Part shown: piece after piece, positions 10,362 to 40,813 of the stretch
How the letters are laid out: each line of letters starts with the position of its first letter
How positions within the stretch are numbered: position 1 is the first letter of the stretch
Origin: a phage
Sequence record: PZ445537.1
Strand: one strand, 5' to 3'
Length of the DNA stretch: 45,054 nt
Program-made: the position numbers and the translations under genes
The notes under the pieces: generated by a model
Database searches by the model: none
What the model was told of the DNA's origin: nothing
What the model saw: the letters and a program-made list of their open reading frames with translations, nothing else

Positions 10362-11099
10362 ATGAGTTTTACGGCAGACATCCAACAGCTTGAGCCCGGC
10401 AGCGTTATTCAGCTGATTGAGATCGACGGCACTGAATACGGTATGGATCAGGTGCTGCGTTTTCATGCGCACAATATTCAGGAAGAGGGGTGGGCAGCCT
10501 TCGCTGCAGAAAATCTGCCCGCCATTATCTGGCAGGGAAACCAGTACGATCCCCATCCCTACGAACTGAAGGGGATGGAGTTGTCGAGTACAGGTTCCCA
10601 GCCAACGCCCACGCTGTCCGTCGGGAACGTCGGAAACTATGTCACCGCGCTGTGTCTTGAATATGACGATATGGTCAGGGCTAAGGTCAAAATCCATACC
10701 ACGCTTTCGAAGTATCTCGATGCCGCCAACTGGAAAAACGGTAATCCGGGTGCCAGCCCGGCCGATGAGCGCGTTCAGCTCTTTTACGTCAATGCTAAAA
10801 CCGCAGAGACGCGGGTACAGGTTGATTTCGAACTGTGTTCACCTTTCGATATTCAGAGCCTGCAGCTGCCTACACGGCAGATTACGCCTGTCTGCACCTG
10901 GTGTATGCGGGGCTGGTACCGAAGCGGGACCGGATGCGATTACAACGGCACGAAATACTTTACCAAAGACGGTATGCCGACCGATGACCCGTCGAAAGAC
11001 GTTTGTGGCGGCCGTCGGCTGGATTGTCAGGATCGTCACGGCCCGGACGCGCCGCTGCCGTTCGGTGGTTTTCCGGCCGCTAACCTGCAGGGAAAATAA
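10362..11099 (+). CDS. L: minor tail protein gpL (Cys-cluster tail tip protein)
   Basis: 245 aa; C-terminal cysteine cluster (CTWCMRGW-C-DVCGG-C) and overall layout match lambda gpL; RBS GGGGGAG. Confidence 0.9.
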   Translation: MSFTADIQQLEPGSVIQLIEIDGTEYGMDQVLRFHAHNIQEEGWAAFAAENLPAIIWQGNQYDPHPYELKGMELSSTGSQPTPTLSVGNVGNYVTALCLEYDDMVRAKVKIHTTLSKYLDAANWKNGNPGASPADERVQLFYVNAKTAETRVQVDFELCSPFDIQSLQLPTRQITPVCTWCMRGWYRSGTGCDYNGTKYFTKDGMPTDDPSKDVCGGRRLDCQDRHGPDAPLPFGGFPAANLQGK

Positions 11100-11101
11100 A
11101 G

Positions 11102-11821
11102 ATGCGTGAAAAATTGCTGGATGCTATCCGTCAGCACGTCGCTGCTGAATACCCCAAAGAAGCCTGCGGTCTGATTGTTCAGTCAGGCCAGCAGCAAATC
11201 TTTATTCCCTGCCGCAACATTGCAGATAAGCCTGAGGAGACATTCACGCTCTCCCCGGAAGATCAGCTCGCTGCCCGCGCGCGCGGTGAGATCATCATGC
11301 TCATTCATTCCCATCCGGATGTGGTTCGGCTGGTGCCCTCGGAGCTGGACCGGATCCAGTGCGACTGGTCGGGGATTGAGTGGGGGATCATGTCCTGGCC
11401 GGACGGGGATTTTTGTACGATTTCCCCGCGTGAAGACCGGGATTATGCCGGGCGGCAGTGGGTACTGGGTTACGCCGACTGCTGGTCGCTTATCCGTGAA
11501 TTTTATCTGCGCGAATACGGCATTGTTCTCGGGAACTATTCAGTACCTTACGAATGGTGGGAGAGCGGCAAGGAACGGCTCTACGACGACAACTGGGAGC
11601 GTGAGGGATTTGTTGAGATTGCCGCCGGTGCAATGCAGCCCGGGGACATCATCATGATGAGTGTGCAGGCATCGGTGACTAATCATGCCGCGGTATATGT
11701 GGGTGACAACATCATTCTCCATCATCTTTTCGGGCACCTTTCTTCGCGAACGCCTTATGGAAAATATTATCGCGACAGAACGGTCCGGGTGGTCAGGCAT
11801 AAGGACAGAATGCATGGTTAA
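11102..11821 (+). CDS. K: tail assembly protein gpK (JAB/MPN plus NlpC/P60-like)
   Basis: 239 aa; JAMM-type HSHP motif with upstream Cys/Glu, then a C-terminal Cys/His segment; position and content match lambda gpK. Confidence 0.85.
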   Translation: MREKLLDAIRQHVAAEYPKEACGLIVQSGQQQIFIPCRNIADKPEETFTLSPEDQLAARARGEIIMLIHSHPDVVRLVPSELDRIQCDWSGIEWGIMSWPDGDFCTISPREDRDYAGRQWVLGYADCWSLIREFYLREYGIVLGNYSVPYEWWESGKERLYDDNWEREGFVEIAAGAMQPGDIIMMSVQASVTNHAAVYVGDNIILHHLFGHLSSRTPYGKYYRDRTVRVVRHKDRMHG

Positions 11822-22576: not shown

Positions 22577-22592
22577 CTGTATATGTATACAG
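22577..22592. promoter_or_regulatory. LexA (SOS) box within divergent promoter
   Basis: CTGTATATGTATACAG (CTGT-N8-ACAG) embedded in the minus-strand promoter TTGACT-17 nt-TATTTT for the dinI-like gene; also directly upstream of the plus-strand ORF at 22618. Confidence 0.7.
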
Positions 22593-23282: not shown

Positions 23283-23328
23283 TGGTCGGCACGAGAGGAT
23301 TTGAACCTCCGACCCCCGACACCCCATG
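23283..23328 (-). other. attP core: 3' ~46 nt of a tRNA gene (tRNA-Pro-like)
   Basis: Minus strand reads CATGGGGTGTCGGGGGTCGGAGGTTCAAATCCTCTCGTGCCGACCA: anticodon-arm remnant, T-arm and acceptor 3' strand with CCA, but no 5' half. Identity to tRNA-Pro is from memory. Confidence 0.6.
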
Positions 23329-23384
23329 TCACTGCGTTAAAGCCGCTGCAACCCTTGTAAATACTGGTGCTACGGCATGTTTGA

Positions 23385-23400
23385 CTGTATATGCAAACAG
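23385..23400. promoter_or_regulatory. second SOS-box-like palindrome near attP
   Basis: CTGTATATGCAAACAG (CTGT-N8-ACAG) preceded by TTGACT and followed by ATTTTT, closely paralleling the dinI promoter; no obvious downstream ORF. Confidence 0.4.
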
Positions 23401-23464: not shown

Positions 23465-24652
23465 TCACCCGGCTTTAAAGACAATTTCAGCATGAGGAAC
23501 TTCTACCCATTCAACATGATTCTGGGTATAAATTTTTGTCGATTTTGCATCACTATGGGCCATCCTTGCCTGCGGATCGATACCTTGTCTTTCGAAAATA
23601 TGAGCCGCCAGCGCTCTAATCTCGTGGAAAGTTGGCCTTTCTTTGATAGGTAATTCTGCCGCTACACCTATCCGGTCCCGCAGCTCTGAAAATGCTCTGC
23701 TCAAATAATCAGGGGCCACCTGTGTTGGGTGGTTAACTTCCTTGCTTATAGGATTGCTTCTCTTTTCCAGAAGCCGGTGAACAACATAAGGACTGGCCAC
23801 ATTGTCTCTGCTGTTGTCGATGATCTCTTTCAGGGCCCTGCCGATCGGAATGGCAACGTGTGAGGCCTCTTTGTGCTGCACTTTTTGCCGATGAATGTAA
23901 AGCGTTCCGAATATTCCAGCCTCTTCCTGATCTAACCATACACATCCGCAAACCCCTTCTTTAGGTTCCTTGATCGAGTACCGGATCCGGGAAACTTCCA
24001 GGCGCGCTTGCGTAGTTTGTATTGCAAGGTCCATTGCAGTCTTCAGCCAAGGTTCAGCAGCTGCATGTATGGCCAGGAACTGCTCCAAAGTAAGTCGCCG
24101 GCGGACCTTTTTATCGACACGCCGCATTTTTTTCCGTGTTGCAGGATTATCCATCATTAGCGATTCATCCACAGCATAAGAGAATAGCTTTTTCAGGAAG
24201 CTAACTTTTCGGTTCTGAACATTGGCCGACGATTCAGAATGGTAATTTCGTATGTAGGCATTTACGTGCTCAAGCTCAATGTCACACGCGGGTATGTTAT
24301 TAAAAAATTCTTTAACCCTGATGGCATCATTATTCCAATCGTCAAGTGTGCTTTTAGACGGCTGCTCATCTTTGATCGCTCTCTCCATAATGCGATCAAC
24401 ATGTTCAGAAAACGGGTGGGCTTCACCATTAAGCCCTCCCGATTCCCGAATTAATGAATCTATCGATGGTGTGTTTTCAGGGCGCATCCTCAGGTTATAT
24501 TCTCGGGCGATGGCGATAGCCATTACTCGATCCGAACCGAGAGTTTTCTTTTTCCCAGTTATAAGCGTGAACTTATACACGCCACGATCTTTATCAAAAA
24601 AAAGATAATCAGGAAGGTGGCGGTATTCTTTTTTTCGTGGCCTTGCTGCCAT
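23465..24652 (-). CDS. int: tyrosine integrase (lambda Int family)
   Basis: 395 aa from ATG 24652 (RBS GAGGG; track start 24658 is TTG); C-terminal catalytic region HEIRALAAH…RMAHSDAKSTKIYT fits the R-H-R-Y pattern; adjacent to the attP core. Confidence 0.95.
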   Translation of the reverse strand: MAARPRKKEYRHLPDYLFFDKDRGVYKFTLITGKKKTLGSDRVMAIAIAREYNLRMRPENTPSIDSLIRESGGLNGEAHPFSEHVDRIMERAIKDEQPSKSTLDDWNNDAIRVKEFFNNIPACDIELEHVNAYIRNYHSESSANVQNRKVSFLKKLFSYAVDESLMMDNPATRKKMRRVDKKVRRRLTLEQFLAIHAAAEPWLKTAMDLAIQTTQARLEVSRIRYSIKEPKEGVCGCVWLDQEEAGIFGTLYIHRQKVQHKEASHVAIPIGRALKEIIDNSRDNVASPYVVHRLLEKRSNPISKEVNHPTQVAPDYLSRAFSELRDRIGVAAELPIKERPTFHEIRALAAHIFERQGIDPQARMAHSDAKSTKIYTQNHVEWVEVPHAEIVFKAG

Positions 24653-24654
24653 GG

Positions 24655-24864
24655 TCAACCCTCAATTATTAACTGACGTACCGCCTGATTAACAATTGAG
24701 TCAACTCCCCACTTTTCGGTTTCATAGACAAAAACTGAACCATCTACAATCCTTCCCATGAGTAATCCGTTTTCGACCCAACGTTTAATTGTACGGTTGT
24801 CAGGAATGGAGTCTTTAGTAAACTCGCGCTTACTCCAGAGACTCGCTTTCATTAGCTTTGCCAT
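24655..24864 (-). CDS. xis: excisionase-like protein
   Basis: 69 aa from ATG 24864 (RBS GAAGGA); TIKRWVENG…GSVFVYETE resembles the Xis DNA-binding fold; stop abuts the int start. Confidence 0.65.
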   Translation of the reverse strand: MAKLMKASLWSKREFTKDSIPDNRTIKRWVENGLLMGRIVDGSVFVYETEKWGVDSIVNQAVRQLIIEG

Positions 24865-25493: not shown

Positions 25494-26246
25494 TTATATT
25501 TCAAATGCCATTTGAGGCATGAAACGATCACGATCTGCGTCGTACTGCAATGAGCTGGCACTGTTGTATGCCTCTATGCGCTCAACCAGAACCGCTGCTC
25601 GTGTTTCTTTGCTTGCAGGCGCGTAGGCTGATTTATCCCATGCCTTGTCGATGCCAATATTGCGCGCCACGTTTGTACTGTCAGCTGACGACAGCGGGAT
25701 GTGACGGAATATATCGGCGTTAAGCATGCGCAGGCCATGAAGCTTTGTTATGGGGTAACCATTATTGTCGACAACATGCCGTATAAGATCTCGCAATTTT
25801 GCCCTGCATGAGCGTGGACGTTTCGCGTCGTATTCACCCATGCTACCGATGCATACCCTGGGGAATTCATGGCATAAGCGGATGAAACGCTCGTCAGGCT
25901 CGTTGAAGTGGTAAACTGGCGCGCCGACAACCTTACCGTGCGGCCATTCAGCTATTAACGCATCATTCTCTTCACTGGTCCCGCCGATCACGTCAGGGAT
26001 AACAGCAAAAGCAAAGCGCGGGTGATTCAACCAGCGGCCCACAAACTCGTAGTAATCATTCCAGTTAACAACGCGCTTTTTTGTCCAGAAGCTGAATGCG
26101 CCGTTATCCAGCGCAAAAGACTGGGTGACTTCGCTTGCAAGAGCTAATTGACCTGGATTAGCGAAGGAAATAAAAGCGTGCCTGCCTTTCCACGCCTTCA
26201 GTGCGCATGTATCAGGGGTTATTGGCCCGCCGTGAAAATGTATCAT
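25494..26246 (-). CDS. conserved hypothetical phage protein
   Basis: 250 aa from the ATG in ATGA overlap with the upstream TraR-like gene (track ORF extends to 26303); no motif recognised. Confidence 0.55.
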   Translation of the reverse strand: MIHFHGGPITPDTCALKAWKGRHAFISFANPGQLALASEVTQSFALDNGAFSFWTKKRVVNWNDYYEFVGRWLNHPRFAFAVIPDVIGGTSEENDALIAEWPHGKVVGAPVYHFNEPDERFIRLCHEFPRVCIGSMGEYDAKRPRSCRAKLRDLIRHVVDNNGYPITKLHGLRMLNADIFRHIPLSSADSTNVARNIGIDKAWDKSAYAPASKETRAAVLVERIEAYNSASSLQYDADRDRFMPQMAFEI

Positions 26247-26470
26247 CCTCCACCCCTGCGCTGTCTCTGCATTATTTCTAAATATTCCTGGCAACTGGCG
26301 CACGTTTTGCAGCCAGGCATTGCAACCCGGCGCGCCTCAGGAATGTCCTCTCCGCATTCAGAACAGTGCTCTGCAGAGACTGCATTCTGATCAATACGGT
26401 GTTTTTGTATGGCCAACTGCAGGCGGTGCTCTAACAGCTCGTTTGCCTGATCGATGATGTCTGAACTCAT
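26243..26470 (-). CDS. TraR/DksA-family C4 zinc-finger protein
   Basis: 75 aa with CSECGEDIP…GCKTCASC (CxxC-N17-CxxC) typical of phage TraR-like proteins. Confidence 0.7.
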   Translation of the reverse strand: MSSDIIDQANELLEHRLQLAIQKHRIDQNAVSAEHCSECGEDIPEARRVAMPGCKTCASCQEYLEIMQRQRRGGG

Positions 26471-29082: not shown

Positions 29083-29711
29083 GGTTTAACCCTCTGTGAG
29101 GCGGCTGCCACCGCCAGTGGAACTTCTCCATACACAACAGAAAAGGGCACCTGCGTAGCACTGACGGCTGCAACCACCATTTCTGCGCCCGGGTGGATTG
29201 GGGAATGAGCCCGTCGCCCGGTGATGCCCTTGTCTCTTGTGTAAAAAAGGTGCCCACCGATGTGATGGGCAAAGACTACACACAGCAATGATTTTGTTGT
29301 GGCGGTGGTGCCTCCACCTGCCGGACCGGCCAGAACCGGCGACGCTACACCTCAAGAAACGTATTCATTCCAAATGTTGAAATAAAAACTTGTTGGCCTC
29401 GTCACGTGCGCAGAGCCGCATTACCACAACGGTGAGAGCACTGTTTACCTGCTTTACCGCGTCGCGTCTCACGCAGTCCGATAATCAGCAATGCTCTCGC
29501 CTGTTGTGCCCTTAAAAAGCTGGCTGTCACCCTCAAGGGGAAAGTGAGCAGCCAGAACAGGGATCACGTCTTATTGCTTTGGCCTGCTTTTAACCACATC
29601 AGGCGCGGTGGTAAGCCATTTGCGAATCATCCGGTCATTCATACGCCACCGGCGGCTACTTCGTGGGCTTCCTGCCTGTTCGCTGTTGATGAAAATGAAG
29701 ATAAAAGATAT

Positions 29712-29748
29712 TTGCGAAATGCGCAAGAAATAAAATGCGTAAAACGCA
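29712..29748. promoter_or_regulatory. OL-like operator dyads (left of cI)
   Basis: TTGCGAAATGCGCAA (29712-29726) and TGCGTAAAACGCA (29736-29748) share half-site TGCG/CGCA with the dyads between cI and cro. Confidence 0.5.
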
Positions 29749-29803
29749 ATTGAAAGGGCGTAAAAAAACCGCCGTGTAGGCGGTTATTTGTTCTTGGGGG
29801 ATG

Positions 29804-30499
29804 TTATCCGTGCCGTTTAACAGACTGCGACTGGCTGATCATTACCTTGCCGAAAACGTAAAATCTGTCTTCATTGGACTTATCCACTGACCACTCCCGA
29901 TATTTAGGGTTATCGGAAATGACAAGAATTTTATCTGGGATCATCTGTAATCTTTTGACATAAATTTTATCATCAAAACCAAATACATAAATCCCATCAC
30001 CATCAAACTCATTGATCGAAATATCAACGAATATCAAATCACCTGGTTCAATGGTATCAGCCATGCTGTCACCACGAACGTTAATCACTTTGACCGTATC
30101 TGGTGTTCTCCCACCAAATAATACGGCGGCTCTTTCGTTGTTGTACTCAATGGACCTGATGACATCGACGACATCACTACCTTGTATATGGCCCATGCCA
30201 GCACTGGCGCTGACATCGAGCAACTCGACTCTAAACACAGGGTCACCCTCTCCATAAGCTGGATTTTTACCACTGGATTTACATACAGTAGTTTCATTTG
30301 GAGACGGTGTAAAGAGTTCTGCCACGCTAACACCAAGTGCCTTAGCATATTTGCTAAGCGATTGTTCAGTAAATGACTTTTGTTTTCCAGTCTCAACCCG
30401 TGAGACGTTCGCACCGTCAATACCTACAGCTTCAGCAAGATCTGAAATTTTCATGCCCTTTTCGAGGCGTAATTCTCTAATGCGGTTTCCTATGTTCAT
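29804..30499 (-). CDS. cI: CI-like repressor (HTH plus S24 LexA-type autopeptidase)
   Basis: 231 aa; N-terminal HTH; Ala-Gly cleavage site (SASAGMGH); catalytic GDSM and downstream Lys (VKRL); divergent from cro. Confidence 0.9.
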   Translation of the reverse strand: MNIGNRIRELRLEKGMKISDLAEAVGIDGANVSRVETGKQKSFTEQSLSKYAKALGVSVAELFTPSPNETTVCKSSGKNPAYGEGDPVFRVELLDVSASAGMGHIQGSDVVDVIRSIEYNNERAAVLFGGRTPDTVKVINVRGDSMADTIEPGDLIFVDISINEFDGDGIYVFGFDDKIYVKRLQMIPDKILVISDNPKYREWSVDKSNEDRFYVFGKVMISQSQSVKRHG

Positions 30500-30517
30500 G
30501 CGTCCATTACAGGTTGT

Positions 30518-30581
30518 TTTTGCGTGATATGCAAAGCAACTTGCGCAAGTCGTAACTACACATTAATATGCGTAATACGCA
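30518..30581. promoter_or_regulatory. OR-like operator cluster between cI and cro
   Basis: Three dyads in the 97-bp intergenic region: TTTGCGTGATATGCAAA (30518-30534), ACTTGCGCAAGT (30537-30548, perfect palindrome), TGCGTAATACGCA (30569-30581). Confidence 0.6.
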
Positions 30582-30596
30582 ATTACAGGGGGCGTT

Positions 30597-30860
30597 ATGC
30601 AATCACCGTTAAGAAATTTGCGAAAATCGCAAGGGTTAACTCTCTCTCATGTGGCAAACGTGGTGGACATTGATCCAGCCAACCTAAGCCGAATTGAAAG
30701 AGGTCAACAAATCGCATCACTCGATGTAGCTGAAAGGCTCGTGAAGTTTTATTCGGGCCAAATTGATGAGCTCCAAATCTTGTACCCGCACCGTTATACG
30801 CAGGCTACAGAAACTGGGGCAGCATCGGTACCACAGGAAAAAGGGGAAAGCCGTGGGTAA
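30597..30860 (+). CDS. cro: Cro-like HTH repressor
   Basis: 87 aa with XRE-type HTH (QGLTLSHVANVVDIDPANLSRIERG); first gene rightward of the operator cluster. Confidence 0.8.
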   Translation: MQSPLRNLRKSQGLTLSHVANVVDIDPANLSRIERGQQIASLDVAERLVKFYSGQIDELQILYPHRYTQATETGAASVPQEKGESRG

Positions 30861-31401
30861 CGAACCGGAATGGAAAGTTGATAAGCAGCCAGCCTGGCTG
30901 GTGGCCGCAATCAAAAAAACGATCACCGAGCTGCCTGGCGGATATTCAGAAGCTGCTGAGTGGTTGGGTGTGACCGAGAACGCGCTGTTTAACCGGCTAC
31001 GAACCGACGGTGATCAGATCTTCCCGCTCGGTTGGGGGATGGTGCTTCAGCGTGCTGGTGGTTCAAACCACATAGCGAACGCTATTGCACGTCACTCGAA
31101 CGGTGTTTTTGTGCCATTGGCTGATGTTGAAGAGATTGAGAACGGCGATATCAACCAGCGTCTCATGGAGTCAGTTGAGTGGATCGGCAGGCATTCGCAA
31201 TACGTTCGTAAAGCCACCGCTGACGGCGTTATTGATGCTCAGGAACGCGCCCAGATCGAAGAGAACAGCTATCAGGTGATGGCTAAGTGGCAGGAACATT
31301 TGACGCTGCTTTTCCGTGTGTTTTGCGCGCCGGAAAAGAATGACGCCCGCGAGTGTGCAGCTCCGGGCGCCGTGGCAGACAAATCTTGTATGGAGAAGTA
31401 A
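30853..31401 (+). CDS. CII-like regulatory protein (CP76-type)
   Basis: 182 aa from GTG 30853 with RBS GGGGAA (the track ORF from 30763 overlaps cro); position after cro; family by recalled sequence. Confidence 0.55.
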   Translation: MGNEPEWKVDKQPAWLVAAIKKTITELPGGYSEAAEWLGVTENALFNRLRTDGDQIFPLGWGMVLQRAGGSNHIANAIARHSNGVFVPLADVEEIENGDINQRLMESVEWIGRHSQYVRKATADGVIDAQERAQIEENSYQVMAKWQEHLTLLFRVFCAPEKNDARECAAPGAVADKSCMEK

Positions 31402-31573: not shown

Positions 31574-31753
31574 ATGCGCGAAGTTAACCGAAGGTTCAAA
31601 GACCACAGAGGGATCCCCGTTCGGGTTATCAGGTGGGAGCCAGAGACTCAACGAGTTATCTACCTGCGGGACGGTTATGACCACGAATGTTTCAGCCCGC
31701 TCGAACAATTCAAGCGCAAGTTTACAGAGTTAAAGGACGACCATGAGCACTAA
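31574..31753 (+). CDS. small conserved prophage protein (DUF4222-like)
   Basis: 59-aa ORF missing from the track (under the size cut-off); protein-like sequence MREVNRRFKDHRGIPVRVIRWEPETQRVIYLRDGYDHECFSPLEQF; stop overlaps the O-like start (ATGAGCACTAA). Confidence 0.45.
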   Translation: MREVNRRFKDHRGIPVRVIRWEPETQRVIYLRDGYDHECFSPLEQFKRKFTELKDDHEH

Positions 31754-32597
31754 ATTAACGGGTTACGTTTGGGACGCTTGTGCCGCTTCTGGCATGAAGC
31801 TGTCCAGCGTTGCCATCATGGCGCGTCTGGCTGACTTCAGCAGTGATGAAGGGGTTAGCTGGCCTTCCATTGCTACCATCGCGCGCCAGATTGGTGCTGG
31901 TGAGAGCACGGTTCGCACAGCCATATCACAGCTGGAAAAAGACGGTTGGTTAACCCGCCAGCAGCGCCGTAAAGGCAACCGAAATGCATCGAACGTTTAC
32001 CAGCTCAATGTTGCGAAATTGCAGGCTGCTGCCTTTTCTCACCTGTCAGATTCTGACGCATCAAAATCTGATGCCTCAAAAACCGACGCGTCAATATCTG
32101 AGGCATCAAAAAACGATGAGAAAGGCGGTTTTCACCCGTCAGAATCTGGGGGGGATCCGTCAGTAAATACAACTACTGATCCATCAGTTAAAAAACCTTC
32201 TTGTCCGGTTGCGCCGCAACCAGACCCTGAAGTGACGATCACCGATAACGCCATCCTGGTTCTGAATCATTTGAACCTGGTTAGCGGCTCACGATACCAA
32301 AAATCAAAAACTTCTCTGGAAAACATCCGTGCTCGTTTGCGTGAAGGTTACACCGTTGGCGACTTACAGCTGGTGATTGACCTTAAGCATGAGCACTGGA
32401 ATGGCAATGACGTGCAGTACCAGTACATGCGCCCTGAAACGCTATTTGGCCCGAAAAAGTTTGAGGGTTATCTGCAAAGCGGGATCCGTTGGGACAAGAA
32501 GGGGCGTCCACCGCGCGAAAGCTGGGGTGAAAAGAAACACGATCCGATGAAGTTCGGTCCGGTTGATACCAAGATTCCAGAGGGGTTCAGAGGATGA
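31743..32597 (+). CDS. replication initiation protein (O-like; N-terminal HTH, conserved phage C-terminal domain)
   Basis: 284 aa; N-terminal winged-HTH segment; serine/aspartate-rich linker encoded by tandem repeats; conserved C-terminal block (GYTVGDLQLVIDLKHEHWNGN). Confidence 0.7.
   Translation: MSTKLTGYVWDACAASGMKLSSVAIMARLADFSSDEGVSWPSIATIARQIGAGESTVRTAISQLEKDGWLTRQQRRKGNRNASNVYQLNVAKLQAAAFSHLSDSDASKSDASKTDASISEASKNDEKGGFHPSESGGDPSVNTTTDPSVKKPSCPVAPQPDPEVTITDNAILVLNHLNLVSGSRYQKSKTSLENIRARLREGYTVGDLQLVIDLKHEHWNGNDVQYQYMRPETLFGPKKFEGYLQSGIRWDKKGRPPRESWGEKKHDPMKFGPVDTKIPEGFRG
32052..32111 (+). repeat. four tandem 15-bp iteron-like repeats (putative origin) inside the initiator gene
   Basis: TCTGACGCATCAAAA / TCTGATGCCTCAAAA / CCGACGCGTCAATAT / TCTGAGGCATCAAAA, each with internal dyad TGA-GC-TCA; encode the SDASK-repeat linker, as lambda ori iterons do within O. 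Confidence 0.55.
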
Positions 32598-33928
32598 ATG
32601 AAAATAAATACTGCCGCGCGCTGGCTGAACTGCGTTCAAGACCAGCCCACGAGTTGAAAGAGGTCGGCGATCAATGGCGCACTCCGGATCTGTTGTTTTG
32701 GGGTATCAATGCGATGTTCGGCCCTCTGGTGTTGGACCTTTTTGCCGACGACAGCAACGCGAAGTGCCCAGCATGGTATACGGCTGAAGATAATGCCCTG
32801 ACGCAGGATTGGTCAGAGCGTCTGGCAGAACTCGGTGGTGCCGGGTTTGGCAACCCGCCTTACAGCCGCTCTCAGTACCACGACAAGCAGGCCGTCACCG
32901 GAATGACCCACATCATTAACCACGCTATGGCAATGCGAGAAAAGGGTGGTCGGTACGTTTTTCTCATTAAGTCTGCGACGAGTGAAACGTGGTGGCCGGA
33001 AGAGGCAGATCACGTCACATTCATCCGTGGCCGAATTGGTTTCGATCTTCCTACATGGTTCGTGCCGAAAGACGAAAAGCAGCAGCCCACCAGCGCATTT
33101 TTTGCTGGCGCTATCGTGGTCTTCGACAAAACATGGCGGGGTGAGCGTTTCAGTTACATCAACCGTACCGACCTGGAGGCCAAAGGCCGTGCTTCGATGT
33201 TGCTGGCCCAGTTTGCAGTGGGAAGAACGCAAACTGATGCGGCGCCGGAGCTTGATGCTGAGGTAGTGCCGGAGAAATTAGAGGCAGAACTGCCATTAAC
33301 CCAAAAAGCCATTCTGGAAACCAGTGGTGTTGAGGCTTGGGCCTGTGTTGTCGCGGCGTTCGGCGAGAAAGATGAGTACACCTTCAGCGAGTCAAAGTTT
33401 GGTCATACCTGGGCTGCCGACTCTTTGGAAGACCCTGAATTTACCAATGTTTCACCGCTGACGATCGACAGAGCGAAAAAGCTGATCAGCGAGAGCATCC
33501 TGGTGGGTGTTAATGCATGGCTGGAAACATTGCGCTTTGATAGCGATGACGTGAAACAAGACATATCAGAGCGGTTACGCACGGTTGCCGTTGAGTCTGC
33601 GAAAGAATACGGCATTAACCACAGTGAATTCATCGCGACCATGGAAAGCCTGGATAAAGCCAAATGGTCAAATATTCGGGGGATCCGCGCCCATGTCCGT
33701 GAGACGCAGGAATCAAAGGACAAGGCGTTAAACGAATCGCGCGTTTGGCCTCTTGAGGTTGGACTGGTGTTTAACCAGATTGAAGGGGCTGACGCTCTAC
33801 CTGTTTCACAGCAGAACAAGCTGAAAGCCAATATCAACCAGCTGTGGCTCGAACGTATGCCGACGAGTGAAATTATCACGACCGCTGGTGGTCTCTTCAA
33901 CAGCATGCAGGGGGCCGTCAATGCGTGA
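32594..33928 (+). CDS. DNA N6-adenine methyltransferase (phage Dam-type) with C-terminal extension
   Basis: 444 aa; catalytic motif GNPPYS (DPPY-type) in the N-terminal half; C-terminal ~230 aa of unknown function. Confidence 0.8.
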   Translation: MNENKYCRALAELRSRPAHELKEVGDQWRTPDLLFWGINAMFGPLVLDLFADDSNAKCPAWYTAEDNALTQDWSERLAELGGAGFGNPPYSRSQYHDKQAVTGMTHIINHAMAMREKGGRYVFLIKSATSETWWPEEADHVTFIRGRIGFDLPTWFVPKDEKQQPTSAFFAGAIVVFDKTWRGERFSYINRTDLEAKGRASMLLAQFAVGRTQTDAAPELDAEVVPEKLEAELPLTQKAILETSGVEAWACVVAAFGEKDEYTFSESKFGHTWAADSLEDPEFTNVSPLTIDRAKKLISESILVGVNAWLETLRFDSDDVKQDISERLRTVAVESAKEYGINHSEFIATMESLDKAKWSNIRGIRAHVRETQESKDKALNESRVWPLEVGLVFNQIEGADALPVSQQNKLKANINQLWLERMPTSEIITTAGGLFNSMQGAVNA

Positions 33929-39760: not shown

Positions 39761-40813
39761 ATGAAAAATACTGTAAATATAAACAGTGTTGAGCTTGTCA
39801 ACGCTGACTGCCTGCTATACCTCGCAACCCTCCCAGATAACACCATTGACCTTATTGTTACGGATCCGCCGTACTTCAAAGTGAAACCCAACGGCTGGGA
39901 CAATCAATGGAAAGGGGATGAGGATTATCTTCGCTGGCTTGATATGTGCCTCGCACAATTCTGGCGAGTGCTAAAACCTGCTGGCAGTCTTTATCTTTTC
40001 TCCGGTCACCGCCTGGCGGCAGACATTGAGATCATGATGCGTGAGCGGTTCAACGTCCTGAACCACATCATCTGGGCTAAACCGTCGGGCCGCTGGAATG
40101 GCTGTAATAAAGAGAGCCTGCGCTCTTACTTCCCTGCAACAGAGCGCATCCTCTTCGCTGAGCATTACCAGGGGCCGTATAAACCAAAGAGCGACGGTTA
40201 CGCGGAGAAGGGAAGCGAGCTGAAGCAGCATGTAATGACTCCCCTAATTTCTTATTTTCGGGATGCACGTGAAGCGCTTGGCATATCCTCAAAACAAATA
40301 GCCGATGCGACTGGAAAGAAGAACATGGTGTCTCACTGGTTCAGCGGTAGCCAGTGGCAATTACCGAATGAATCAGATTACCGGAAGCTTCAGTCCCTTT
40401 TCACGCAGGTAGCCATCGAAAAGCACCAGAACGGCGAACTGGCAACACCACACCACCAGCTGGTGGCTATGTGGCATTCGTTGAATCGCAAGTATTCAGA
40501 GCTGCTCGAAGAGTACAAATCACTTCGGCGGCATTTCTCTGTTTCCGTATCCGTTCCTTATACCGACGTCTGGACACATAAACCCGTTCAGTTTTATCCA
40601 GGTAAACACCCATGCGAAAAACCCGCTGACATGTTGCGGCAGATCATCAACGCCAGCAGTAAGCCTGGTGATGTGGTGGCTGATTTCTTTATGGGGTCCG
40701 GTTCGACCGTGAAAGTCGCGCTGGAACTTGGCCGCCAGGCTATTGGCGTTGAACTCGAAGAGGAAAGGTTTAATCAGACGATGGGGGAAATACGGGCGTT
40801 GGCAGGGGAATAA
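39761..40813 (+). CDS. DNA methyltransferase (N6-adenine/N4-cytosine, beta class)
   Basis: 350 aa; catalytic motif VTDPPYF near the N-terminus and AdoMet motif FFMGSGST near the C-terminus. Confidence 0.85.
   Translation: MKNTVNINSVELVNADCLLYLATLPDNTIDLIVTDPPYFKVKPNGWDNQWKGDEDYLRWLDMCLAQFWRVLKPAGSLYLFSGHRLAADIEIMMRERFNVLNHIIWAKPSGRWNGCNKESLRSYFPATERILFAEHYQGPYKPKSDGYAEKGSELKQHVMTPLISYFRDAREALGISSKQIADATGKKNMVSHWFSGSQWQLPNESDYRKLQSLFTQVAIEKHQNGELATPHHQLVAMWHSLNRKYSELLEEYKSLRRHFSVSVSVPYTDVWTHKPVQFYPGKHPCEKPADMLRQIINASSKPGDVVADFFMGSGSTVKVALELGRQAIGVELEEERFNQTMGEIRALAGE

Follow-up and report, generated by a model that had tools for sequence, protein, structure and literature searches.

The switch regions of several phages related to the one considered here have been described in part. 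The 98-bp control region between cI and cro of Citrobacter phage phiNP drives an ultraviolet (UV)-responsive lux reporter, the DNA replication of phiNP rises after UV, and the phiNP lytic reporter is repressed by the Cro protein of phage phi1720a-02; in AlphaFold3 models, the phi1720a-02 Cro is placed on a 20-bp site 12 bp upstream of the phiNP cro and on a site 20 to 39 bp upstream of its own cI (bioRxiv 10.1101/2025.01.01.630987). That preprint models one 20-bp site per phage and does not give the full operator set, the left operator (OL) pair, the site within cro, or the promoters. In Salmonella phage ST64B, the lysis genes are induced by mitomycin C. The present analysis concerns the region around the divergent cI and cro genes in a phage DNA of 45,054 nucleotides (sequence record PZ445537.1; this whole stretch is called the window below), which is very probably the lysis/lysogeny immunity switch of a lambdoid temperate Escherichia coli phage of the ST64B/phiNP type.

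The 2.5 kb around this immunity region is 100% identical to Escherichia phage Eeyore (PP925821.1, 45,057 bp), whose source was river water. With the same 2.5-kb query, the DNA identity is 96.6% to phage Flotzy, 82% to phiNP, and approximately 70 to 74% to ST64B, mEp460, phi1720a-02, and several Shiga toxin (Stx2a) phages. No paper on Eeyore or Flotzy was found in the literature. For comparison, cI homologues and their flanks were collected from 80 IMG/VR loci, in which cI is 68 to 100% identical, and annotated phages were added; removal of duplicates left 59 distinct right operator (OR) regions and 62 distinct OL regions, which are the unique relatives referred to below. The genes that define the locus are as follows.

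29804-30499, minus strand: cI repressor gene (231 residues), with an N-terminal HTH_3 domain (E = 9e-12) and a C-terminal Peptidase_S24 domain (E = 3e-21)
30597-30860, plus strand: cro (87 residues), with an HTH_3 domain (E = 7e-10)
30853-31401, plus strand: gene of a CII-like regulator of the YmfL/CP76 family (PF06892, E = 1.7e-8; PHROG 101, CII-like activator, E = 1.5e-58)

A 97-bp control region separates the divergent cI and cro genes. The Shine-Dalgarno sequence of cro, AGGGGG, is graded good, and the CII-like gene begins with a GTG codon at 30853, which gives an overlap of 8 nucleotides with the end of cro. The gene layout is that of a lambdoid switch (cI, divergent cro, short gap, and a CII-type gene next).

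The operators were scored with the pattern TTGCG-N5-CGCAA, allowing at most one mismatch, and six sites were obtained.

29712-29726: OL1, TTGCGAAATGCGCAA, no mismatch
29735-29749: OL2, ATGCGTAAAACGCAA, one mismatch
30520-30534: OR3, TTGCGTGATATGCAA, one mismatch; overlaps the -35 hexamer and spacer of the predicted cI promoter PRM
30541-30555: OR2, TTGCGCAAGTCGTAA, one mismatch; its left half is the -35 hexamer of the predicted rightward promoter PR
30568-30582: OR1, ATGCGTAATACGCAA, one mismatch; overlaps the -10 hexamer and the +1 position of PR
30618-30632: sixth operator-like dyad, within codons 8 to 12 of cro, TTGCGAAAATCGCAA, no mismatch

OR3, OR2, and OR1 lie in the 97-bp gap, and OL1 and OL2 lie to the left of cI, past the cI terminator. 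An earlier note on this DNA had described five dyads built on a shared half-site, three between cI and cro and two left of cI, and all five are present at these places, each with no more than one mismatch to the pattern. As a total, the count of five did not stand, since the perfect site at 30618-30632 falls just outside the range considered there. We know of no biochemical characterization of the TTGCG-N5-CGCAA operator sequence. Measured between centres, OR3 and OR2 stand 21 bp apart, OR2 and OR1 27 bp, OR1 and the cro site 50 bp, and OL1 and OL2 23 bp; OL and OR are separated by about 0.8 kb. OR3 and OR1 are thus 48 bp apart, and both the 48-bp and the 50-bp spacings are kept in the relatives.

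All six sites fall in a stretch of 921 bp, and the remainder of the 45,054 bases contains no further match at this threshold. From base composition, approximately 0.03 sites would be expected in the 921-bp interval, which corresponds to a Poisson P of about 1e-12; this value overstates the significance because the pattern was chosen after the sites had been seen, and conservation serves as the independent test. In dinucleotide shuffles, 3.5 sites are expected, scattered over the whole window. It is extremely improbable that the dyads are chance palindromes or intrinsic terminators. A terminator scan did mark three dyads as weak hairpins with T-rich sequence after them, but the clustering speaks against chance palindromes, the dyads overlap promoter hexamers, and about 60 relatives retain the positions and half-sites while the loops vary and the stems do not covary; the hairpin or terminator reading was rejected on this conservation, which extends over both the OR and the OL relatives.

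Across the 59 to 62 unique relatives, the half-sites show essentially no variation; drift is seen in the 5-bp spacers and in the DNA between the operators. OL1 is perfect in 57 of 60 scorable relatives, with a variable spacer, and OL2 carries zero to two mismatches at an OL1-OL2 spacing of 22 to 24 bp. OR3 shows exactly one mismatch in every one of the 59 relatives, its right half always being TGCAA; OR1 likewise has one mismatch in 59 of 59, and this is always the leading A, which is part of the PR -10 hexamer. Homologous cI and cro genes with dyads at matching positions place the locus in the ST64B/phiNP/1720a-02-type immunity group. The reading of this stretch as an immunity region, which the earlier note had proposed, is borne out by the gene order, by the conservation of the dyads in approximately 60 non-identical relatives, and by the invariant S24 residues and Ala-Gly pair of CI described below.

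The sixth site, which retains zero or one mismatch in 57 of the 59 relatives, is under selection at the DNA level, as its codons are frozen in the half-sites and free in the spacer. The codon of Leu8 is TTG in all 57 cases, whereas Leu5 and Leu16, which are just as invariant as residues, are encoded by six and five different codons, respectively; similarly, Ser11 is encoded by TCG in 56 of 56, against three codons for Ser3 and four for Ser17. For Arg9, the codon is always CGN and never AGR, and its free third base falls in the operator spacer; for comparison, AGA, CGA, and AGG are all used for Arg6. A conserved dyad in a gene might instead reflect an mRNA hairpin or a protein-coding constraint with no DNA-binding protein involved, which we consider unlikely. 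The 15-mer can indeed form a small hairpin (-6 kcal/mol, z = -3.3), and in the mEp460 group a double change, GTGCG...CGCAC, preserves the outer pair. However, about half of the relatives alter position 15 alone (A to C or T) and break this pair, and the inner four pairs never vary, so that they provide no covariation for an RNA structure. The stem is small, the outer-pair changes are one-sided, and the motif is identical to that of the five intergenic operators, and for these reasons the RNA-hairpin reading is the weaker one; in addition, codon choice is fixed exactly at the half-site positions and free at the spacer positions. A leftward promoter within cro starting from the sixth site was also considered and was rejected, as there is no -10 hexamer at the proper spacing. 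As an operator embedded in cro, the site is a clean example of a regulatory sequence that constrains codon choice.

OR2 is the least certain of the intergenic sites. The earlier note had counted it as an operator dyad, which holds for this DNA, where it has one mismatch; across the relatives, it is conserved only in its left half. The left half and the flanking upstream sequence AAGCAACTTGCGCAA are invariant among the 59 relatives, whereas the right half is poorly conserved, with one mismatch in 33 and at least three in 11, the latter including ST64B and the mEp460/1720a-02 group. These features fit an explanation in which OR2 is not a true operator and the invariant block TTGCGCAA is kept as the PR -35, perhaps as an element shared by PR and PRM. 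The working right-hand sites would then be OR3, OR1, and the cro site, at the conserved spacings of 48 and 50 bp. We regard this as a serious possibility but the less probable one, because OR2 is a one-mismatch dyad here and in those 33 relatives, equal in this respect to OR1 or OR3, because it lies two helical turns (21 bp) from OR3, and because the conservation around it runs well beyond the -35 hexamer, across the upstream block.

The promoters predicted around these sites, together with the terminator of cI, are listed here.

29698-29726, minus strand: putative leftward early promoter PL; -35 TTGCGC at 29726-29721 (left half of OL1 as read on this strand), 17-nt spacer, -10 TATCTT at 29703-29698
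30506-30534, minus strand: putative PRM; -35 TTGCAT at 30534-30529 (inside OR3), -10 TGTAAT at 30511-30506
30541-30569, plus strand: putative PR; -35 TTGCGC at 30541-30546, 17-nt spacer, -10 TAATAT at 30564-30569
29767-29785, minus strand: intrinsic terminator of cI, AACCGCC-tacac-GGCGGTT followed by U7 (z = -3.4)

In all three promoters, the -35 hexamer is an operator half-site and the spacer is 17 nucleotides. The entire -35 hexamer of PL and the A2 and T6 of its -10 hexamer are conserved in the 62 relatives, as are TTGCGC and TAAnAT of PR among the OR relatives, and the PRM -10 hexamer TGTAAT is invariant in all 59. The stems of the cI terminator covary in the relatives (CCGCC/GGCGG, GACCTC/GAGGTC, and GGCCGC/GCGACC), and these relatives retain the run on the cI side. 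The predicted start of PR is near 30576, inside OR1, that of PRM is at 30499, the A of the cI ATG, and that of PL is at about 29691. With respect to the PR start, OR2 is centred at -28, OR3 at -49, OR1 at -1, and the cro site at +49; with respect to PRM, OR3 is centred at -28 and OR2 at -49, and with respect to PL, OL1 is at -28 and OL2 at -51, with no additional sites at either of these two promoters. The dyads thus lie over the PR and PRM hexamers, with a second cluster at PL, as is expected of a switch of this type. TGTAAT ends 7 nucleotides before the cI ATG, and the six bases between them are variable and contain no Shine-Dalgarno sequence, which suggests that cI is probably translated from a leaderless PRM transcript. 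In lambda, too, the cI transcript from PRM is leaderless.

Some observations weigh against this picture. Of the 12 positions of the sigma-70 consensus, PR, PRM, and PL each match only about 7, and a consensus scan requiring at least 9 of the 12 found no promoter in OR or OL, so that these three had to be placed by hand with the aid of the hexamers conserved in the relatives. The 27 bp between OR2 and OR1 is off-phase for pairwise cooperativity of the lambda style, and the poor conservation of the OR2 right half points in the same direction. To these may be added the outcome of the structure searches with CI and the LexA boxes of the window, both of which are given below.

The CI protein has the features of a self-cleaving repressor of the S24 class. 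Peptidase_S24 (PF00717) scores 75.7 bits against a cut-off of 23.3 and is matched over model positions 6 to 116 of 116. An intact LexA-type module with an Ala-Gly site, GDSM, and VKRL had been noted before in this protein, and all three are present: A100-G101 in VSASAGMG, G143-D-S145-M, and V181-K182-R-L. The GDS145M and VK182RL motifs align with GDSM and VKKL of UmuD, in which the nucleophile Ser60 and the base Lys97 lie within these motifs. A distance of 37 residues separates Ser145 from Lys182, as it does the corresponding residues in UmuD and LexA, and A100-G101 lies 45 residues upstream of Ser145. The Ala-Gly pair, Ser145, and Lys182 are invariant among 54 unique CI sequences. Searches against solved structures with the single sequence and with a profile matched UmuD, the 434 repressor, and SinR, and did not reach LexA or lambda CI; Ala100-Gly101 is accordingly a cleavage site assigned by motif and position only.

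Cro is a paralogue of the N-terminal domain of CI (47% identity over 34 residues, E = 5e-10). The two proteins share the recognition-helix motif xANxSRxE, which reads D-G-A-N-V-S-R-V-E in CI and D-P-A-N-L-S-R-I-E in Cro and is almost invariant among the relatives. Such near-identical recognition helices fit a model in which CI and Cro read one operator set. The Cro sites modelled in the preprint coincide with OR1 in phiNP and OR3 in phi1720a-02 when checked on the sequences, and the half-site common to the whole family would account for the repression of phiNP by the phi1720a-02 Cro.

The earlier note had expected induction to be RecA-dependent, and self-cleavage of CI stimulated by activated RecA is indeed predicted here from the sequence and from the behaviour of relatives. 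The window also contains three exact LexA boxes (CTGT-N8-ACAG) against 0.47 expected, which may indicate an additional SOS input.

22577-22592: LexA box 1, TACTGTATATGTATACAGTC, between a DinI-like gene (minus strand) and a small operon
23385-23400: LexA box 2, between int and a tRNA-like fragment
39771-39786: LexA box 3, in codons 4 to 9 of an N6/N4 DNA methylase gene

The operon beside box 1 encodes a 79-residue PHROG 3893 protein and a 106-residue UmuD-like protein that lacks the GDSM serine. Induction might run mainly through a LexA-controlled phage factor, either an antirepressor or a RecA modulator, in a Gifsy-like manner, instead of through self-cleavage of CI. Besides the boxes, one of which adjoins the DinI-like gene and the UmuD-like operon, in several relatives the CII-like gene has a Rha or antirepressor gene as its neighbour. 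However, Eeyore lacks a Rha or Ant gene at this position, the scan of the window for exact boxes found none in the immunity region, and the invariance of the Ala-Gly pair, Ser, and Lys in the 54 CI homologues implies selection for self-cleavage. A mainly LexA-controlled route thus appears improbable, and such an accessory input is a minor rival to the cleavage of CI.

The published work nearest to this locus is the preprint cited above, and close parallels are found in the phages of the same immunity group. The phiNP and phi1720a-02 regions have homologous cI and cro genes (82% and about 73% DNA identity, respectively) and the same dyad layout. In ST64B (sb38/sb39), the cI, cro, and CII-like genes are approximately 71% identical at the DNA level, the operator positions match, and there is induction by mitomycin C; it differs in having no recognizable OR2 right half and an antirepressor-like gene, sb41, downstream.

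The switch resembles that of lambda in its divergent cI and cro genes, in the operators over back-to-back PR and PRM with a second cluster at PL left of cI, in the CII-type gene after cro, in a CI protein with an S24 self-cleavage domain, and in the probably leaderless cI mRNA made from PRM. The predicted distance between the PR and PRM starts is 77 bp, and in lambda it is about 82 bp. On the other hand, the operator is a 15-bp TTGCG-N5-CGCAA dyad whereas that of lambda has 17 bp, OL has two sites instead of three, there is an extra conserved operator within cro, OR2 is weak and stands 27 bp from OR1, and the DNA-binding domains belong to the HTH_3 (434/P22-like) type. In addition, an N gene is lacking, the PL leader runs for about 600 nucleotides and has two terminator hairpins, and only about 0.8 kb separates OL from OR. 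With 434 and P22, the locus shares related CI and Cro recognition helices, one operator set predicted for both proteins, and AT-rich operator centres, and the solved structures closest to the CI N-terminal domain are those of the 434 repressor, dh434, and SinR; sequence identity to these is low (E of about 1e-6 to 1e-3), and the half-site sequence is a different one. An extra repressor site in coding sequence downstream of the lytic promoter is known from TP901-1 (OD) and phi105, where the distal site is hundreds of base pairs away and acts by looping of higher oligomers, whereas the extra site here is only 50 bp from OR1. The e14 prophage was rejected as a model, because it has another repressor and other operators: its YmfK matches only 39 residues of the S24 domain (41% identity), its operators are of the GGTACA type, and what it has in common with Eeyore is limited to the YmfL-like CII gene and a portion of the PL leader. 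Overall, the design is an ordinary variant of the lambda switch in an under-studied specificity class.

In the mechanism proposed for this switch, dimers of CI and of Cro would bind the common 15-bp dyad TTGCG-N5-CGCAA. OL1 (at about -28 of PL) and OL2 (at about -51) would shut the leftward early promoter, while on the right OR1 would cover the -10 and +1 positions of PR, OR2 its -35 hexamer, and OR3 the -35 hexamer and spacer of PRM. The sixth site, approximately 49 bp downstream of the PR start, would most likely add to the repression of PR, either as a roadblock or by binding cooperatively with OR1, at a distance of about five helical turns. Upon DNA damage, activated RecA would stimulate self-cleavage of CI at Ala100-Gly101 by means of Ser145 and Lys182, PR and PL would fire, and Cro would then bind, probably to OR3 first, and turn PRM off. 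We infer the protein binding, the start sites, the order of occupancy, and the role of the sixth site from the DNA and its relatives. More tentatively, and with doubt as to the whole, the right operator may have four sites, with OR3, OR1, and the cro site at spacings of 48 and 50 bp and a weak OR2 between them, so that a short-range complex of CI, looped or wrapped and extending into cro, could keep PR repressed; the two-site OL would act over a long, N-less PL leader with an RprA-like small RNA as its first terminated product, which would link induction to host regulation of the RpoS/Rcs type.

The PL leader itself (29083-29700, minus strand, approximately 600 nucleotides) has no convincing open reading frame. 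A hairpin at 29517-29553 (minus strand), with a strong 15-bp stem followed by CUUUUU (-28 kcal/mol, z = -3.6), is probably a first terminator of this leader. At 29242-29340 on the same strand is an element that resembles RprA (Rfam RF00034; 41.2 bits, E = 0.006); the score is below the gathering score of 70 and only the 3' part matches well, and the element is thus not a member of the family by this measure. It has 23 nucleotides exactly identical to the conserved RprA 3' region (AUUGCUGUGUGUAGUCUUUGCCC), and a terminator hairpin with a U-run comes after them. The combination of this 23-mer, a hairpin, and a T-run occurs in at least 120 IMG/VR contigs with varied gene contexts, whereas Eeyore, Flotzy, and LLS are the only deposited phage genomes with copies of high identity, and some Erwinia phages have an 85%-identical partial match of about 48 nucleotides. 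The element may be a phage-borne mimic of the host small RNA; no paper on phage RprA-like RNAs was found. At the Rfam gathering thresholds, the whole window gave no matches.

Two other blocks of the leader are conserved. The first 70 or so nucleotides of the predicted PL transcript (29619-29691, minus strand) are 84 to 96% conserved in phages with unrelated immunity, and this transcript start is shared with e14, Pectobacterium ZF40, Yersinia YeP3, Providencia phages, and Salmonella F1055. In a phage without N, this stretch may serve as a signal for antitermination or for processing; put-type antitermination has been suggested for the related phage LLS. The put RNA of HK022 was considered as a counterpart in the PL leader and was rejected, as there is no sequence similarity to 9.5 kb of HK022. 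Just downstream of the RprA-like terminator, a 62-nucleotide block at 29186-29247 is approximately 87% conserved in Stx2, SfV, SfII, and mEp460-type phages.

Outside the immunity region, four tandem 15-bp iteron-like repeats with flanking inverted repeats lie at 32045-32118 inside the replication-protein gene (31743-32597), and this is probably the replication origin. The stretch at 23285-23345 resembles the 3' half of a tRNA-type gene (GGTCGGCACGAGAGGATTTGAACCTCCGACCCC) and adjoins int (23465-24658, minus strand); ARAGORN found no complete tRNA gene there, and the fragment is probably the attP core. In the public annotation, the early operons (about 25500-26250 and 32594-33928) encode a queuine tRNA-ribosyltransferase-like protein, a DksA-like protein, a phosphoadenosine phosphosulfate (PAPS) reductase-like protein of 444 residues, and a DNA methyltransferase, an assortment that, from annotation alone, suggests a DNA-modification module.

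The map also corrects the public annotation. In the Eeyore record (PP925821.1, about 11056-11416, corresponding to 30500-30860 of the window), cI is annotated but cro is absent, two small hypothetical open reading frames on the minus strand are drawn across the control region and the start of cro, and the CII-like frame is extended at its N terminus from a TTG start. What is added by this analysis is a candidate sixth operator in cro with a signature at the codon level, the doubtful status of OR2, and a predicted promoter map. Together, these yield a complete predicted map of operators and promoters for a widespread immunity type, which occurs in ST64B, phiNP, mEp460, and some Stx2 phages, including phi1720a-02. 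Given one half-site for the whole family, cross-immunity and cross-regulation of co-resident prophages, including those of Shiga toxin phages, would be predictable from sequence.

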